The translations under genes and the position numbers were made by a program. From a virus (taxonomy: Duplodnaviria; Heunggongvirae; Uroviricota; Caudoviricetes), in IMG/VR virus record IMGVR_UViG_2778261515_000018, positions 1 through 28,775 of that record: a stretch of DNA of 28,775 nt; one strand, given 5' to 3'. Below, one piece after another: positions 4,043-10,884 of this stretch. The notes under the pieces are model-generated. The model saw only the letters and a program-made list of their open reading frames with translations. It was not told where the DNA came from and did not search any database. The number at the start of each line of letters is the position of its first letter. The first letter of the stretch is position 1.

Positions 4043-5011
4043 TTAGTAGGTTATTTTTGTTGCGAATACTTCGCCTTTTACGATGGCTGTTATGATATTT
4101 TTAGCAACATCTTCTGATGCGCCAACCTTGATAAGGTCAGCAAGTATTTTGTTATTTACTTCTTTCCGGTGAGCTTTATCCTTTGCTCTACGCTCTTCTT
4201 CTTCCTTGATTCTTTTTTCTTCTGCTATTCTGGCTTGCTCTTTTGCTTCAGCCTCGCGCCGGATTCGTTCAGCCTCCTCCTGTGCTTTTCGGCGTTCTGC
4301 TTCAATTGCCGCCTGCTTTTCTCTTTCAGCTCGTTCTGCTGCCTCTTTTGTTTCGCGCTGTGCTCGTTGCTCGGCTTCAATGCGTTCACGCTCTGCACGT
4401 TCCGCTGCGGCCTTAGCTTCTGCTTCTCGCCTTGCTGCTGCTTCAATTTCGGCTTTTGCCTTTGCTTCGGCTTCAGCTCTGGCTTTCTCTTCAGCTTCTC
4501 TTTTTAAGCGTTCTTCATGCTCTCGCTTTTCCTGCTCCGCTTTGAGTCTTGCCTCTTCTCTTTGGCGGTCAAATTCGCGATCCATCAAAATCGCTATTTC
4601 ATGGTCAGACTCAATTTGCTTTGCGAGAGCTTCAGCTGCTGCCTTAGCTTCTTCTTCAGCTTTAATTCGCGCCTGTTCCTCTTCATAATCAGTAAGAGGC
4701 TGGCGTGCCTTGGCTTTCAGCTCATCAAGGCGATCGCGCACTGTCTTGCGGTTGGCATCAATTAGCTTTGGAATTTCCTTCAGTTCAGCAACAAGGTCTT
4801 TTCCAAGACCATCGAGATATGTTTTCGTCTGCGCAACTTTATACGCCAGAGAAGCGATCTCCTTTCTGCCCTTTGCCGTTGTGATATCAGGCACAAAGGA
4901 CATAACTTCACGTTCAACCTTTTGAAGGATTTCTTCAATCTGGTCGGCAGACTGAAATACAGTCATTGCATTTGCTTTTTCAATAACAACTAAATCTGTT
5001 ACTTCACTCAT
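4043..5011 (-). CDS. Coiled-coil protein with a long Glu/Arg/Lys/Ala-rich helical repeat region (322 aa)
   Basis: Track ORF trimmed to the ATG at 5011 (GGAGG 4-5 nt upstream). About 150 residues of EAEAKAKAEIEAAARREAEAKAAAERAERER-type repeats. Confidence 0.7.
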   Translation of the reverse strand: MSEVTDLVVIEKANAMTVFQSADQIEEILQKVEREVMSFVPDITTAKGRKEIASLAYKVAQTKTYLDGLGKDLVAELKEIPKLIDANRKTVRDRLDELKAKARQPLTDYEEEQARIKAEEEAKAAAEALAKQIESDHEIAILMDREFDRQREEARLKAEQEKREHEERLKREAEEKARAEAEAKAKAEIEAAARREAEAKAAAERAERERIEAEQRAQRETKEAAERAEREKQAAIEAERRKAQEEAERIRREAEAKEQARIAEEKRIKEEEERRAKDKAHRKEVNNKILADLIKVGASEDVAKNIITAIVKGEVFATKITY

Positions 5012-5028
5012 ATATCCTCCGTCAAAAA

Positions 5029-5048
5029 AATTGCCCTCACACCGGAGG
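5029..5048 (-). terminator. Intrinsic terminator in the pL operon (tL-like)
   Basis: Minus-strand RNA GCCCUC CGGUGU GAGGGC followed by AAUUUUUUU, immediately upstream of the RBS of the 4043..5011 gene. Confidence 0.55.
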
Positions 5049-5145
5049 GCAAAGAAGATTTCCAATAATCAGAACAAGTCGGCTCCTGTTTGGTTACGAG
5101 CGACATTGCTCCGTGTATTCACTCGTTGGAATGAATACACAGTGC

Positions 5146-6323: not shown

Positions 6324-6632
6324 TTACCTCGCTGTAATTAGTTTTTGCCTTCTGTAACCAGCAGCATACAGTGCAACTTCAGGCAAACAAACGCTTCCGC
6401 TATTCGCATCTGTATTTGATTTGCTAATGATGCCGAGTGATATTGCTTTTTCAGAAATGCTTAAACGCTTTCTCGGGGCTTCCTGAACAGGTTCCTCACT
6501 GTCTGTGCCGAAGATCGAATCGATGATGTTGCATATAGCATCACGCTCGATAGCCAGCTTTCTGCGCCGCTCATGACGGCGAGTTTTGGCATTTCCTGCA
6601 AATGTTGATTTTCCGTACACGATTACCGTCAT
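6324..6632 (-). CDS. N: Antitermination protein N, P22 gp24-type
   Basis: Internal ATG of track ORF with GAGGAA RBS; N-terminal arginine-rich motif GNAKTRRHERRRKLAIERD matches the P22 N peptide; cognate P22-type boxB lies upstream. Confidence 0.85.
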   Translation of the reverse strand: MTVIVYGKSTFAGNAKTRRHERRRKLAIERDAICNIIDSIFGTDSEEPVQEAPRKRLSISEKAISLGIISKSNTDANSGSVCLPEVALYAAGYRRQKLITAR

Positions 6633-6751
6633 GATATTTTCCTCATGTGAAATGGCTTTGGTGGTAATGCGCCAGATGCTGATCTTCTGGTTGCTGTCGT
6701 TGCTGCTGCAATTCACATCACCGCCAAACCCATCTCGTTTGGTATCTGTTT

Positions 6752-6786: not shown

Positions 6787-6831
6787 TGCCAATCTGTTCC
6801 GTTTGGCTTCCAGCTTCCTGCTGATGTGTTT

Positions 6832-6894
6832 AGTATCACCGCTAGTGGTATTTGTGTCAACACCGCCAGAGATAATTTATCACCGCAGATGGTT
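6832..6894 (-). promoter_or_regulatory. pL promoter with OL1/OL2/OL3 operators (lambda-type)
   Basis: Minus strand: -35 TTGACA (6855..6860), 17-bp spacer, -10 GATACT (6832..6837). 17-bp operators OL1 6834..6850, OL2 6858..6874, OL3 6878..6894, near-identical to lambda as recalled. Confidence 0.85.
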
Positions 6895-7043
6895 ATCTGT
6901 ATGTTTTTTATATGGATTTATTTTTTGCAGGGGTGAATTGTTAGGTAGGTGAGGGATCAGAATTGCACTGTTTAGCAAGTTGTATCTATTAGTTTTCCAA
7001 TAAATACAAATGGTTATGTGTTGTTGGGAAAGGGGAGCGAGAG

Positions 7044-7071
7044 GCAAAGAAAACCCGGCGCTGAGGCCGGG
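7044..7071 (-). terminator. t_imm-like intrinsic terminator ending the cI operon
   Basis: Minus-strand RNA CCCGGC CUCAGC GCCGGG followed by UUUUCUUUG; matches the lambda t_imm sequence as recalled. Confidence 0.75.
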
Positions 7072-7085
7072 TTGTGAGGAATTAA

Positions 7086-7271
7086 TTACAGAGCAAAGAG
7101 ATCATGCATTAGGTTGCTGTTCATCTGGTGGTTGAATTGATACGGCTCCAATTCCTTCTTGATCTCGTTCAGGTGTTGTTCCGCTTTTTTTGCCAGATCG
7201 TGACCTTCTTGGATCTGGCTTTCCAACATCTTGTTGAGAATTTCCATCTCCGGTTGCAGATTCTTCGGCAT
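7086..7271 (-). CDS. Possible small overlapping ORF (61 aa) at the 3' end of the peptidase gene
   Basis: Alternative frame MPKNLQPEMEILNKMLESQIQEGHDLAKKAEQHLNEIKKELEPYQFNHQMNSNLMHDLFAL with GAGG about 9 nt upstream of ATG; could be a separate gene, a frameshift product or chance. Confidence 0.25.
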   Translation of the reverse strand: MPKNLQPEMEILNKMLESQIQEGHDLAKKAEQHLNEIKKELEPYQFNHQMNSNLMHDLFAL

Positions 7272-8103
7272 TAGCTTTTTCCTCTTTTTGTAGATACGTT
7301 GTACAATCAATAACCCTCGGCTTTCCAAATGTTGGAATGTCACCATTATGAATTTTGTCACAGAAAAGATTATAGAGTATTTCTGTTATACCTTTAGGAT
7401 GCTCAACACACTTGAAAAGTTCCTTGGCTTCTTTTCTGTCTATAACAAATCCATGTGAAGGATATGAGGCTATTAGTTTGCCTAACGCCCCTTCTTTTAG
7501 GCTGCTTGGTTTGTCTGCTAATCGTTGGCCATAAGTGATAGCTATACTCATTGCGCGCTGATGTTCACCAAGCTTTATTGGATCTATCTGTGCGGCCATA
7601 GGTGCTATCAACGCTTCTGTAAGTCTGGTCGCGATATCAGCAGACATTTTAGTACTTATCTGATTTTCGTATCTTATCTTAACAAGGTGTGAGTTAAACG
7701 CTGAAATAGAGCGTTCCTTTAGAGCATCAAGAGCTGTCATGATAGCTAAACCAGAACTCATCTCACCTATTTCATCGTTTTTTTTCAGTTGGATATCTAA
7801 TGGCCCAAGCTCCCCCATGTCACCAATAACAAGTTTATTGGCTGCTATAGCTATTAGTGTACCAGCACTTTTGCATGGTCCAACAACTAAAAGTGTTACC
7901 GTTTCATAATGGTGTTGTAGAGCTCTACCTATACGATAACCTGCATTTGGATCACCGCCATAAGTAGCAACACAGAAGATAACATTCTCTTTTAATCCAT
8001 GTTGTGACTTACGTTTCTTGATTTCATTGGTGAGATCAAGATAACCATCACGATGAATATCGCCTGTATACACATAAACATCATGATTTTCAATAGAATT
8101 CAT
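7102..8103 (-). CDS. Clp/SppA-fold (S14/S49-like) serine peptidase-like protein (333 aa) in the position of lambda rexAB
   Basis: Track ORF; AGGGAG RBS 8 nt upstream of ATG. Motifs ATYGGDPNAGYRIGRAL and LVVGPCKSAGTLIAIAANK align by eye with the ClpP oxyanion and catalytic-Ser regions; no obvious ClpP His motif, so a Ser/Lys dyad is possible. C-terminal ~70 residues low complexity. Same strand as cI, 115 bp downstream. Confidence 0.65.
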   Translation of the reverse strand: MNSIENHDVYVYTGDIHRDGYLDLTNEIKKRKSQHGLKENVIFCVATYGGDPNAGYRIGRALQHHYETVTLLVVGPCKSAGTLIAIAANKLVIGDMGELGPLDIQLKKNDEIGEMSSGLAIMTALDALKERSISAFNSHLVKIRYENQISTKMSADIATRLTEALIAPMAAQIDPIKLGEHQRAMSIAITYGQRLADKPSSLKEGALGKLIASYPSHGFVIDRKEAKELFKCVEHPKGITEILYNLFCDKIHNGDIPTFGKPRVIDCTTYLQKEEKANAEESATGDGNSQQDVGKPDPRRSRSGKKSGTTPERDQEGIGAVSIQPPDEQQPNA

Positions 8104-8218
8104 TCGTTAAACTCCCTGCTGTGGTTACGATGAATGTATTCATGTTGAAGCTAAGCTATAGCGGCTTGTCATCATCACCAATCTGGCGGAATTGACTGCT
8201 CATAAATCACAATTGGAA

Positions 8219-8935
<717 letters not shown>

Positions 8936-8942
8936 TTAAATC

Positions 8943-9008
8943 TATCACCGCAAGGGATAAATATCTAACACCGTGCGTGTTGACTATTTTACCTCTAGCG
9001 GTGATAAT
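8943..9008. promoter_or_regulatory. OR3-OR2-OR1 operators with divergent pRM (leftward) and pR (rightward)
   Basis: OR3 TATCACCGCAAGGGATA 8943..8959; OR2 TAACACCGTGCGTGTTG 8966..8982; OR1 TACCTCTAGCGGTGATA 8990..9006; pR -35 TTGACT 8980..8985 and -10 GATAAT 9003..9008 with 17-bp spacer. Confidence 0.9.
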
Positions 9009-9023
9009 GATTGCATGTACTAA

Positions 9024-9233
<210 letters not shown>

Positions 9234-9240
9234 GTAACAC

Positions 9241-9275
9241 CGCTCTTTATCAATCTGCACCGCCGACAACGCGGT
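9241..9275 (+). promoter_or_regulatory. nutR: nutR: boxA (9241..9249) and P22-type boxB (9259..9275)
   Basis: CGCTCTTTA followed by hairpin ACCGC-CGACAAC-GCGGT just downstream of cro; matches P22 nutR boxB as recalled. Confidence 0.75.
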
Positions 9276-9936: not shown

Positions 9937-10884
9937 ATGAGCAATACAGCAAAAATCTACGATTTCAGCGCCGCACACGAGCGCAGGAGCAACAGGATGG
10001 AGAACCAGAAAACTGGTTACATTCCGTTGTACCGGAGCATTCTGAAACAGTCATGGGCGAAAGATGTTTATCTTCGCACCCTGTGGGAAAACCTTCTCCT
10101 GAATGCCGCCAGAAAGCCATACAAAGCGAATTTCAAAGGTCATGAATGGCATCTGCAACCCGGTCAACTGGTTGTGACAGCAGCTGATTTAGGTCTTCAG
10201 TTATGCGACAGGCATGGCAAGCCGGCAAGCCGTGATCAGGTTGAGCGGATGCTTCAGGTTTTTGTGAAAGAGGGGATGATCACCATTGATGGAGAGAAGC
10301 AAAAAGGTCGTGTGATCACCATCACAAATTACCATGAATATGCTCAAAAAATGGACAATTCACCCGCACATGAAGCCGCACAAACAACCGCACATGATGC
10401 CGCACATGATGAAGCCAGTAATGGCGCGGCTTTCAGCGTACATGCCGCACATGAAAGCGCACATGAAGCCGCACAAACAACCGCACATCATGAACAAGAA
10501 GGTATTAACAAGAATATAAATAATACCCCCCTACCCCCCAATGGGGGAGGCGATGGGCAGGTTAAACATGAACGTCGCAAGGCAGAACGAATCGACTACG
10601 AATCCTTCCTGAACGCCTACAACACCGAAGTCGGTGACAGACTGCCACACGCTGTTGCGGTCAACGAGAAACGCAAACGCCGCCTGAAGAAAATCATCCC
10701 GCAACTGAAAACGCCAAACGTGGACGGTTTCAGAGCGTATGTCAGGGCGTTTGTACATCAGGCCAAGCCGTTTTACTTCGGAGACAACGACACTGGCTGG
10801 ACGGCAGATTTTGATTACCTGCTGAGGGAAGATTCGTTAACGGGAGTACGGGAAGGGAAGTTTGCAGACAGGGGGATAGCATGA
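9937..10884 (+). CDS. Replication initiator, O / P22 gp18-like (315 aa)
   Basis: Track ORF directly upstream of the helicase gene (ATGA overlap); contains the internal iteron array and A+T-rich tract typical of a lambdoid ori inside O. Confidence 0.75.
10363..10530. repeat. Origin-like iteron array plus A+T-rich tract inside the O-like gene
   Basis: Two clusters of about 4 direct repeats of CCGCACATGA / GCCGCACAAACAA (10363..10413 and 10444..10494), including a ~30-bp near-perfect direct repeat (10369..10399 vs 10463..10493), then AAGAATATAAATAATA and a C-run/G-run inverted repeat. Confidence 0.7.

Follow-up and report, generated by a model that had tools for sequence, protein, structure and literature searches.

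A peptidase gene in the rexAB slot

The window analyzed here, a stretch of 28,775 nucleotides, belongs to an E. coli prophage of lambda immunity type in which rexAB has been supplanted by an uncharacterized gene for a Clp-fold serine peptidase (Table 1). The repressor encoded by cI is 95% identical in amino acids to lambda CI, and the block from cI to cro (8223-9247) is 92.98% identical to lambda at the nucleotide level. Alignment to lambda pairs window positions 6813-7073 with lambda 35570-35826 (oL/pL, t_imm, and the rexB stop) and positions 8223-9247 with lambda 37231-38255 (cI to cro). From these homology break-points it follows that the peptidase gene fills the rexA-rexB slot exactly, its cargo segment standing where lambda carries 1404 bp of rexA-rexB and their spacer. 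The first-pass annotation had placed a 333-aa ORF on the cI strand between cI and t_imm, 115 bp from cI and in the position of rexAB, all of which the coordinates and the alignment bear out. The terminator that it had assigned to 7044..7071 is also present, with somewhat different limits, and begins 13 nt past the stop codon of a small overlapping ORF described below; a pL-like promoter lies at 6860-6832. The difference in base composition between the peptidase gene and cI is real (39.5% versus 43.8% G+C, in a window of 47.8%; GC3 of 26% versus 40%), although smaller than had been claimed.

Table 1. Features of the cI-N interval and their coordinates in the window
Feature	Position	Strand	Remarks
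N antiterminator gene	6324..6716	-	Pfam N_peptide E=3.9e-38; distal border of cI-N hotspot, outside cassette
t_imm-type intrinsic terminator	7044..7073	-	hairpin 7052..7073, 8-bp G+C-rich stem, T-run to ~7044
Exchanged cargo segment, 1149 bp	7074..8222	-	homology break-points with lambda
Unannotated 61-aa ORF, frame +1 (MPKNLQPEMEILNKMLESQIQEGHDLAKKAEQHLNEIKKELEPYQFNHQMNSNLMHDLFAL)	7086..7271	-	ATG at 7271, AGAGGA Shine-Dalgarno upstream
SDH-family Clp-fold serine peptidase gene, 333 aa	7102..8103	-	RefSeq WP_001084325.1; PHROG 21683
Dual-coding overlap, 170 nt	7102..7271	-	peptidase tail residues 278-333 and first 56 codons of small ORF
Folded part of peptidase (residues ~1-280)	7264..8103	-	Clp-fold core 1-108 and helical domain 118-280
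Ser79 codon (AGT, within C-K-S-A-G-T), predicted nucleophile	7867..7869	-	invariant in 34 homologues
Spacer from cI to peptidase gene, 115 bp	8104..8218	-	GGGAG Shine-Dalgarno 7-8 nt 5' of ATG
cI repressor gene (lambda immunity type, HTH and S24)	8219..8932	-	first gene of lysogenic operon

A search of the 115-bp spacer for a terminator and for a consensus promoter found neither. The longest ORF inside it has 15 codons. It has no homology to the lambda cI-rexA spacer, and it accompanies the peptidase gene behind a different repressor. When the cI-to-t_imm interval was compared across lambda-immunity phages, at least six alternative cargos were found between the same flanks, including rexAB, hicAB, HK97 gp48/49, a NYN-domain gene, and hypothetical genes. 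Judged by sequence, the cassette lies between the repressor and t_imm/pL/N, within conserved flanks that enclose variable content, on the strand of the repressor and with no terminator between them, and it is cargo of the lambdoid cI-N (rexAB) hotspot. The rexAB and BstA abortive infection systems are sited in this same cI-N interval (Owen et al. 2021, PMC8585504), for which mosaic diversity has been described (Degnan 2007, as cited in PMC8585504).

Fold, residues, and family of the peptidase

PGAP names the protein an SDH-family Clp-fold serine proteinase, and its PHROG family is labeled "unknown function." In the predicted structure, the Clp-fold core (residues 1-108) has pLDDT values above 90 and the C-terminal tail has values below 50. 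The fold matches those of ClpP, NfeD, and SppA, and the best structural matches in BFVD are proteins named serine dehydrogenase proteinase, with 240-280 columns aligned. As in peptidases of clan SK, a Clp fold is combined with a predicted nucleophilic serine at a G-x-S-x-G-T-like turn. Specifically, a HMMER alignment pairs Ser79 with the serines in AASAGT of NfeD 1510-N and in AASMGT of ClpP, which we take to be the catalytic serines of those enzymes. The Clp-type motifs with a candidate serine that had been noted earlier are present, and Ser79, Asp103, His181, and His217 follow one another along the chain as residues that are invariant across the 34 homologues, together with Lys78, Lys108, and others. 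Also as noted earlier, there is no histidine motif of the ClpP type, since Asp103 stands at about +24 from Ser79, not the histidine that the ClpP (S14) triad has about 25 residues past its serine. A Ser79-Lys108 dyad and a triad with His and Asp are equally possible as the catalytic arrangement. Based on the invariant residues and on the match of the predicted fold to ClpP, NfeD, and SppA, the peptidase is likely to be an active enzyme. No gene for an AAA+ unfoldase or ATPase was seen adjoining it at the locus.

Structure prediction bore out the expected Clp fold, whereas scores against Pfam and NCBIfam fell below curated cut-offs. The best matches in these collections, PF01972 and NF047768, fall on the nucleophile region and cover only residues 44-108, with 29.6 bits for PF01972 (cut-off, 31.3) and 36.7 bits for the NCBIfam equivalog (cut-off, 250). 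Yet PF01972 matches all 34 homologues, and precomputed PF01972 matches are present on the closer ones; we therefore place the peptidase in a peripheral SDH subfamily. Pfam CLP_protease scored 19.0 bits, below its cut-off of 20.2. The longest sequence match was to the NCBIfam family Clp_rel_HeadMat (residues 14-141, E=2e-8), at 34 bits far below the cut-off of 120, and several PHROG head-protease families matched as well. Sequence-profile matches in the PDB (E ~0.4) were too weak to map residues beyond the serine, and none of the PADLOC-DB v2.0.0 profiles matched the peptidase at E<=1.

A second reading frame in the tail of the peptidase gene

The first-pass annotation had counted one ORF in the interval, which did not hold, as the DNA of the peptidase tail also codes for a conserved 61-aa ORF in frame +1. 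The low-complexity tail that it had described is indeed predicted to be disordered, and its DNA has this second use. The entry for the small ORF in the ORF list begins at an upstream GTG; across loci, the ATG is invariant and the residues preceding it are variable. Shine-Dalgarno motifs lie 5' of the ORF in 45 of 73 loci, and all eight database clusters of the small protein, the only ones in which it has been called, have 61 aa and an identical start. AF2 predicts a single long amphipathic helix (pLDDT 86).

Among 78 homologous genes from many phyla, an ORF in frame +1 runs across the peptidase stop codon in 72 and one in frame +2 in a single gene (Fisher p=7e-37 for the frame +1 ORF against a background of other long ORFs, for 78 loci that are not phylogenetically independent). 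The periodicity of substitutions switches to frame +1 at about the ATG of the small ORF, and the main frame within the overlap is open for longer than synonymous shuffles predict. In most pairs compared, the small ORF is conserved above the main-frame tail; the small protein and the peptidase tail are both fast-evolving. In several lineages the overlap is just 11-60 nt, and there the small ORF is an ordinary downstream gene. With an open second frame, a start codon and ribosome binding site, conservation, and its own codon-position selection, the frame +1 ORF looks like a real gene with a putative product, and the flip in codon position indicates selection at the protein level in frame +1. PGAP does not annotate the ORF, a Pfam search with the small protein returned no family, and phmmer linked small proteins within lineages only, detecting no homology across phyla. 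As far as can be read from the sequences, what is conserved across phyla is only the position, frame, and size of the small ORF.

Distribution and genomic neighborhood

Of the 5426 complete E. coli genomes, 49 carry the peptidase gene, and its family spans many phyla, with 1356 clusters at 50% identity and E<=1e-30. The cassette recurs behind at least four unrelated prophage repressors, each upstream and co-oriented. These are lambda cI; a second LexA-type repressor, where a 3' remnant of lambda cI is retained; in Klebsiella, a Rac-type CI that lacks the S24 domain; and in Serratia, a P22-like S24 repressor. Repressors with HTH and S24 domains lie within 3 kb upstream in 10 of the 78 genomes, from several bacterial classes. 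In Gilliamella, a repressor, a YidD-like ORF, the SDH gene, the small ORF, and BstA (PADLOC E=7e-117) follow in that order on one strand. At the loci of one Klebsiella phage and one Leclercia prophage, an XRE gene (one without a name at the Leclercia locus) and a gene for an ImmA/IrrE-type (M78) peptidase adjoin instead. A second E. coli type of the gene (71% nucleotide identity) has a DinI-like gene as its neighbor and lies where the prophage ends.

Apart from the small ORF, no neighboring gene is conserved in the 78 loci, and a known defense gene is an immediate neighbor at only about one locus in ten. Many homologues adjoin ordinary metabolic genes, and many family members lie outside prophages. 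The copies in Nostocales are chromosomal and vertically conserved, beside genes for a tRNA synthetase and an M48 peptidase. This neighborhood hints that at least some members of the family serve the cell, and a stable chromosomal gene in Nostocales weakens a defense-only reading. A small partner encoded upstream was also considered. For the 71-aa hypothetical protein annotated before the homologue in the Klebsiella phage, no counterpart exists in the window or at the loci of Serratia, other Klebsiella, and E. coli; two Leclercia-type loci give a match at the C terminus, but a weak one (E=0.029).

Proposed function and alternatives

The reading that we tentatively favor is that the cassette is a two-gene cargo of the cI-N interval and acts as an anti-phage module expressed in lysogens. 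The product of the first gene would be a serine peptidase that works in the cytoplasm, uses Ser79 as its nucleophile, and belongs to the SDH branch within the ClpP/SppA/NfeD fold; the second gene would encode a coiled-coil-like helix of 61 aa, in frame +1 of the DNA that codes for the disordered tail of the peptidase. Because the flanks are conserved, no terminator intervenes, and lambda rexAB offers an analogy, both genes would share the cI transcripts that start at pRM (and pRE), so that every lysogen would make their products; expression of the cassette in lysogens is thus probable. The module may act through superinfection exclusion or abortive infection, with the peptidase as effector and the fast-evolving small protein as its partner, be it an inhibitor, a substrate, or a specificity factor. 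Infection would alter the pairing of peptidase and partner and so set the peptidase free to degrade a target from the phage or the host. A defense function, as read from genomic position, is plausible. We infer that the small ORF is translated, that the two products interact, and that a target of this kind exists. The interpretation offered in the first-pass annotation is, on the whole, partly supported. A broader and somewhat unlikely proposition is that an SDH-type peptidase and a helical partner make up an unrecognized, phylum-spanning two-component proteolytic switch encoded in dual-coding DNA, whose uptake into the repressor operon by temperate phages would have given rise to a new peptidase-based class of abortive infection or exclusion.

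The peptidase could instead be a factor of lysogenic conversion or general proteolysis that has no anti-phage role and benefits the host by processing or degrading host proteins in stress, envelope, or regulatory turnover. Such a role would fit the housekeeping-type neighborhood of the Nostocales members, the ordinary metabolic genes beside many homologues, and the zero PADLOC matches, as well as the structural relatives SppA and NfeD, which are housekeeping peptidases of membrane proteins. It is harder to reconcile with a gene that sits repeatedly and directly behind unrelated prophage repressors and in the rexAB/BstA slot, that is sporadic within species, and whose small partner and tail evolve at a pace more typical of conflict systems; we regard it as unlikely. 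Quite improbable, in our view, is a toxin-antitoxin-like addiction module that stabilizes the prophage, in which a toxic or toxicity-activating product is neutralized by its labile counterpart, segregants that lose the prophage die, and any defense is a side effect. The compact arrangement of two genes, the tight coupling of a small fast-evolving protein to an enzyme gene, and the movement of the cassette between prophages are all in keeping with addiction, and ietAS, cited in PMC13069673 as a toxin-antitoxin-like defense system with a serine-protease toxin, offers a precedent. Against it stand the lack of similarity to any known toxin-antitoxin family, the resemblance of the Nostocales copies to stable chromosomal genes, and a gene order and long overlap that are unusual for type II pairs.

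Physical linkage to repressors of four families, along with the XRE and ImmA/IrrE-type neighbors in the Klebsiella phage and the Leclercia prophage, might also point to a modulator of the prophage switch, in which the peptidase tunes induction or establishment by acting on the repressor, on an antirepressor, or on a host factor. Yet the repressors differ in mechanism (self-cleaving S24 and noncleavable Rac-type), which makes a common substrate unlikely; lambda-immunity phages function without the cassette and with unrelated cargo in the slot; and many family members occur outside prophages. These considerations make a switch modulator very improbable. The least probable of the alternatives, to which we attach hardly any weight, is that the cassette is a single gene and that the frame +1 ORF is not independently translated, its signal reflecting nucleotide-level constraint or a programmed frameshift that gives the peptidase an alternative C terminus. 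An A-rich run (CAAAAAGAGGAAAAAG) lies immediately 5' of the small ORF, and the missing PGAP annotation, the mere eight database clusters, and the lack of a Pfam family or of detectable similarity across phyla could be taken in the same sense. However, the invariant ATG after variable residues, the Shine-Dalgarno motifs, the lineages with short overlaps, and the codon-position flip all argue for a separate gene, and the frameshift version is unlikely because the common -1 slip cannot reach frame +1.

Few phage-exclusion loci have been known for longer than the rexAB slot, and it is accepted that the cI-N interval is a hotspot of defense genes expressed in lysogens. A Clp-fold peptidase cassette that occupies this slot and has no described phenotype is a ready candidate for protease-based defense. 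The small out-of-frame gene escapes standard annotation and alters what needs to be cloned or mutated; a construct or deletion designed with only the annotated ORF in mind would alter two proteins unnoticed. More generally, the overlap is a clean example of long dual coding kept across bacterial phyla, and the small gene opens a way to learn what the SDH-like family as a whole does, a family to which no biology has been assigned.

Comparison with known systems

The SDH family (PF01972, NF047768) is the best family match of the peptidase, from which it differs in that only about 65 residues align by sequence and that both scores lie below cut-off. Compared with other members of the ClpP/SppA/NfeD group (MEROPS clan SK), it has an extra helical domain and a disordered tail. 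Unlike ClpP, it lacks the His-Asp motif and an ATPase partner nearby, and unlike SppA and NfeD, it has neither a signal peptide nor membrane segments. ClpP-related head-maturation proteases differ in context, as the gene described here is part of the lysogenic operon, far from the head genes and on the other strand. In lambda, the gene C, which encodes an S49 protease, contains within its 3' portion a nested scaffold gene, Nu3. The cassette resembles C/Nu3 as a protease gene with a (putative) second product from its 3' end; however, Nu3 is in frame and the small ORF is out of frame.

Fillol-Salom et al. (Cell, 2022) reportedly described FS_HP_SDH_sah as a phage-protective, PICI-encoded two-gene system composed of a small hypothetical protein and an SDH_sah/SDH_protease (PF01972) protein. 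By this description, the cassette is similar in pairing an SDH-type peptidase with a small unannotated protein; it differs in that its E. coli homologues were found in prophages, with no PICI context seen. The name FS_HP_SDH_sah is that of a DefenseFinder gene model (PMC13532340). Tai (tail assembly inhibition; PICIs, phi80) was considered as an identity and set aside. The passages of the Tai paper drawn on here state that Tai genes are recognized by neither DefenseFinder nor PADLOC, name no protease domain, and contain nothing that ties Tai to a protease or to the peptidase gene. Literature searches on SDH_sah/PF01972 proteins and serine dehydrogenase proteinase found nothing relevant, and those on SppA in an anti-phage context and on proteases downstream of repressors found nothing specific.

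The closest parallels in position are RexA-RexB and BstA. Like lambda RexA-RexB, the cassette has cI upstream and t_imm and pL/N downstream, in an identical slot with identical flanks, and it consists of two genes on the cI strand that presumably share the same pRM transcript. In sequence and fold the two are unrelated. In the Rex pair, RexA acts as sensor for the membrane protein RexB (reviewed in PMC8585504), whereas the products of the cassette would be a Clp-fold peptidase that is soluble and a helix of 61 aa, from genes that overlap by 170 nt. BstA of prophage BTP1 is expressed in lysogens, and across diverse Gram-negative prophages its gene stands downstream of the repressor gene (Owen et al. 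2021, PMC8585504). The protein itself is unrelated, and the PADLOC BstA profile does not match the peptidase. Nevertheless, BstA and the cassette are alike in keeping their position while the repressor varies, and in Gilliamella the two stand together on one strand, with BstA downstream.

Results

Position of the peptidase gene

Alignment with lambda places the peptidase gene where the first-pass annotation had put it, as a 333-aa ORF on the cI strand, 115 bp after cI, in the rexAB slot. Two blocks are homologous: the first pairs window 6813-7073 with lambda 35570-35826 at 90%, running from oL/pL across t_imm up to the rexB stop, and the second pairs window 8223-9247 with lambda 37231-38255 at 93%, covering cI to cro, so that window 7074-8222 replaces rexA, rexB, and their spacer. 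A scan of the window found promoters resembling pR and pL where expected, a hairpin that is the sole terminator-like element on the cI strand in the interval, and no such element between cI and the peptidase ORF. The next gene leftward is the N antiterminator (Pfam E=3.9e-38). The interval is 100% identical in E. coli UMNK88, in which the product carries the RefSeq name "SDH family Clp fold serine proteinase," and in strain rl0044. The A+T-richness noted earlier is real relative to cI and modest in size: G+C is 39.5% in the peptidase gene, 43.8% in cI, and 47.8% in the window, and GC3 is 26% versus 40%.

Features of the interval that replaces rexAB
Feature	Position	Strand	Remarks
cI	8219..8932	-	product 95% identical to lambda CI; stop 115 bp before peptidase ATG
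Peptidase gene	7102..8103	-	333 aa; ATG start, GGGAG before it
Small ORF	7086..7271	-	61 aa from ATG at 7271; AGAGGA 7-13 nt upstream
Terminator-like hairpin (T-run follows)	7052..7073	cI strand	promoter/terminator scan

Elsewhere in the window, a 340-aa ORF of the pL operon (4043-5065, minus strand) is largely E/A/K/R-rich, repetitive, and coiled-coil-like (..EAKAKAEIEAAARREAEAKAAAERAERERIEAEQRAQ..); in RefSeq, its homologue is "hypothetical" in each of two genomes, and a third has it as "cell envelope biogenesis protein TolA." A replication-initiator-like protein (9937-10884, plus strand) has a His/Ala-rich repeated segment at about 10330-10520, across which all the other frames on both strands are open; by analogy with lambda O, this may reflect origin iterons inside the gene.

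The peptidase

Profile matches to the protein all fell below threshold and covered the nucleophile region only: Pfam SDH_protease (29.6 bits; cut-off 31.3) and CLP_protease (19.0; 20.2), and NCBIfam Clp_like_SDH (36.7; 250) and Clp_rel_HeadMat (34; 120). PHROG 21683, a family without known function, matched over the full length, and PADLOC profiles gave no match to the peptidase. Across 34 aligned homologues, His64, Lys78, Ser79, Glu98, Asp103, Lys108, Asp174, Glu180, His181, Arg183, His217, Asp222, and Arg223 are invariant, and in HMMER alignments Ser79 pairs with the motif serine of NfeD 1510-N and of ClpP, which we take to be the nucleophile. The AF2 model (mean pLDDT 76.5; above 90 for core residues 1-108) has a helical domain to about residue 280 and falls below 50 at residues 283-332. 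Its viral structure matches are giant-virus "serine dehydrogenase proteinase" entries, with 240-280 columns aligned. Together, the profiles, invariant residues, and model matches make the proposed Clp fold sound and sustain the candidate catalytic serine. The reported lack of a ClpP-type His motif also holds and fits the family: Asp103 lies at about the position of the ClpP histidine, and invariant histidines come downstream of it. The protein is probably an active enzyme, and its predicted catalysis may use a Ser-Asp-His triad or a Ser79-Lys108 dyad.

The loop after the Asp103 strand (residues 104-117; window 7780-7794, minus strand) contains invariant or near-invariant Gln105, Lys108, Asp110, Glu111, and Ser117. 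Residues 109-115 (7759-7779) are the only low-confidence segment within the folded core (pLDDT below 50), and the loop may be mobile, with a part in catalysis or gating. Clusters of the family number 1356 at E<=1e-30 in a set of 1.84 billion representatives, and almost all of its members are single-domain proteins of 300-370 aa.

A second reading frame beneath the tail

The locus had been described as a single ORF with a low-complexity tail; the ORF stands, and the description was incomplete, in that the tail DNA also holds a small ORF. The window ORF listing gives a 91-aa ORF (7086..7361) in a frame other than the peptidase's. Read from its ATG at 7271, this is the 61-aa small ORF, which shares 170 nt with the peptidase gene and ends 16 nt past the peptidase stop, 13 nt ahead of the terminator stem. 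All enterobacterial homologues examined keep frame +1 open and have this ATG, and those at just 59% peptidase identity still carry a LEPYQ..NQM motif. Across loci from many phyla, an ORF of 45 aa or more that starts with ATG crosses the peptidase stop in frame +1 at 72 of 78 and in frame +2 at one of 78, against backgrounds of 19% and 9% for other long ORFs of the same loci (Fisher p=7e-37). These frame +1 ORFs have a median of 60 aa and overlap by 11 to 254 nt; with overlaps as short as 11 nt, the ORF is simply the next gene in some lineages.

Substitutions among close relatives fall at main-frame codon position 3 throughout the core and shift to position 1, the third position of frame +1, in windows starting at about the small-ORF ATG (counts by position 108/35/66, 103/42/43, and 108/68/44 in those windows; upstream, e.g., 45/0/235). 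Cyanobacterial homologues show the same switch. In most compared pairs, the small protein, modeled as one long helix (pLDDT 86), is better conserved than the main-frame tail from the same DNA. The main frame likewise stays open: the median overlap is 116 nt, against 38 nt predicted by shuffling the small ORF synonymously (combined p=4e-25, which is optimistic because loci are not independent). Given this conservation, frequency, and codon-position evidence, the tail is best read as dual-coding DNA, and protein-level constraint in the overlap as stronger on the hidden frame. One property of the locus was unexpected: its dual-coding overlap is long, spans phyla, and conceals a second gene. In a collection of 5.8 billion proteins, the small ORF was called only eight times, always at 61 aa and under no name other than "hypothetical protein."

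In Klebsiella phage ST13-OXA48phi12.4 (L001), the conserved downstream frame +1 ORF is unannotated. A 71-aa "hypothetical protein" there (L001:3802-4017) lies just ahead of the SppA-like gene, which it overlaps. Other loci with the peptidase gene do not conserve it, and the call is probably spurious. P2-like Burkholderia phage vB_HM387 (L002:3908-4991) has a 42%-identical homologue alone after the integrase, near the record end; its frame +1 ORF crosses the peptidase stop by 13 nt and is Thr/Pro/Arg-rich and not helix-like.

Distribution and repressor contexts

Among 5426 complete E. coli genomes, 28 carry the same gene at 90-100% nucleotide identity and 21 more a second type at 71%. The gene lies behind lambda cI, a different LexA-type repressor (WP_000428098) in E. 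coli T28R, HZDC01, and EcE.CRE.COL, a Rac-type CI in Klebsiella, and, in Serratia, a P22-like repressor. Ten of 78 genomes, belonging to several bacterial classes, have an HTH+S24 repressor within 3 kb upstream of it. Between the WP_000428098 repressor and the peptidase gene, three loci (L004:6064-6229, L005:6067-6232, and L006:6068-6233; compare window 8190-8250) retain the last ~30 nt of lambda cI (..QWPEETFG*) as a non-coding remnant. This remnant marks the junction and shows that recombination at the cI 3' end carried the cassette from one immunity type to another. Other sites, typical of prophage accessory ("moron") genes, are a prophage end beside a DinI-like gene and an inverted position in the late-early region alongside an XRE/ImmA pair.

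In Gilliamella sp. Pas-s25 (L012:4660-8729), one strand carries, in this order, a repressor, a YidD-like 67-aa ORF, the SDH peptidase, the small ORF, and full-length BstA (PADLOC E=7e-117); this prophage repressor operon stacks two candidate or known defence cargos in the same slot. At a few other loci, direct neighbors are restriction enzymes or PD-Lambda-1, RmrA, or PD-Lambda-2 proteins. Apart from the small ORF, no conserved neighbor was found across the compared loci. In 14 Nostocales genomes, the gene occupies one syntenic chromosomal neighborhood, with genes for a class II tRNA synthetase and an M48 peptidase adjoining it. In heterocystous cyanobacteria (L050, L054, L060, L065-L077, L082, and L083), the peptidase gene and frame +1 ORF (MKKIQTEITQIGKELRKNQFLQTMERMKRLKE..) are syntenic beside these two genes and a helicase-like protein, which suggests a vertically inherited cellular role in that clade.

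Discussion

Our analyses demonstrate a two-gene cassette of a peptidase with the Clp fold, probably active, and a small, conserved, predicted helical partner, a position in a repressor operon, and horizontal mobility. A defence function is plausible. Lambda rexAB is transcribed with cI from pRM. The cassette would be expressed likewise, as textbook knowledge of rexAB and the description of the cI-N slot as highly transcribed in lysogens (PMC8585504) lead us to expect. The small ORF would be translated independently and its product paired functionally with the peptidase; the pair would exclude or abort superinfecting phages. The peptidase would be the effector, and the fast-changing helix, perhaps together with the tail, would serve as an inhibitor, a substrate, or a determinant of specificity. 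We hold this whole reading, from translation of the small ORF through pairing to a role against superinfecting phages, tentatively, as a proposition falling a little short of evenly balanced.

The chromosomal synteny in Nostocales counts against a purely defensive role, and a proteolytic or fitness function unrelated to defence is a possibility that we consider unlikely but serious. The cassette could instead be an addiction module, composed as it is of a predicted peptidase and a small partner, and we regard this as distinctly unlikely. That it modulates the lysis-lysogeny switch, beside whose repressor it sits in several immunity types, seems very improbable. Least probable is a single gene whose frame +1 is not expressed independently, given the codon-position switch.

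The window cassette is cargo of the cI-N hotspot. It resembles the hotspot cargos rexAB and BstA in position and presumed expression and is unrelated to both in sequence and fold. The fold puts the peptidase in clan SK; the profiles make it a peripheral SDH-family relative that scores under the curated cut-offs, and it is not a ClpP. The lambda C/Nu3 nested protease/scaffold pair offers a loose architectural analogy only. The nearest functional precedent known to us, likened by description only, is FS_HP_SDH_sah, confirmed as a DefenseFinder model name: a PICI-borne system of a small hypothetical protein and an SDH_sah-domain protein.
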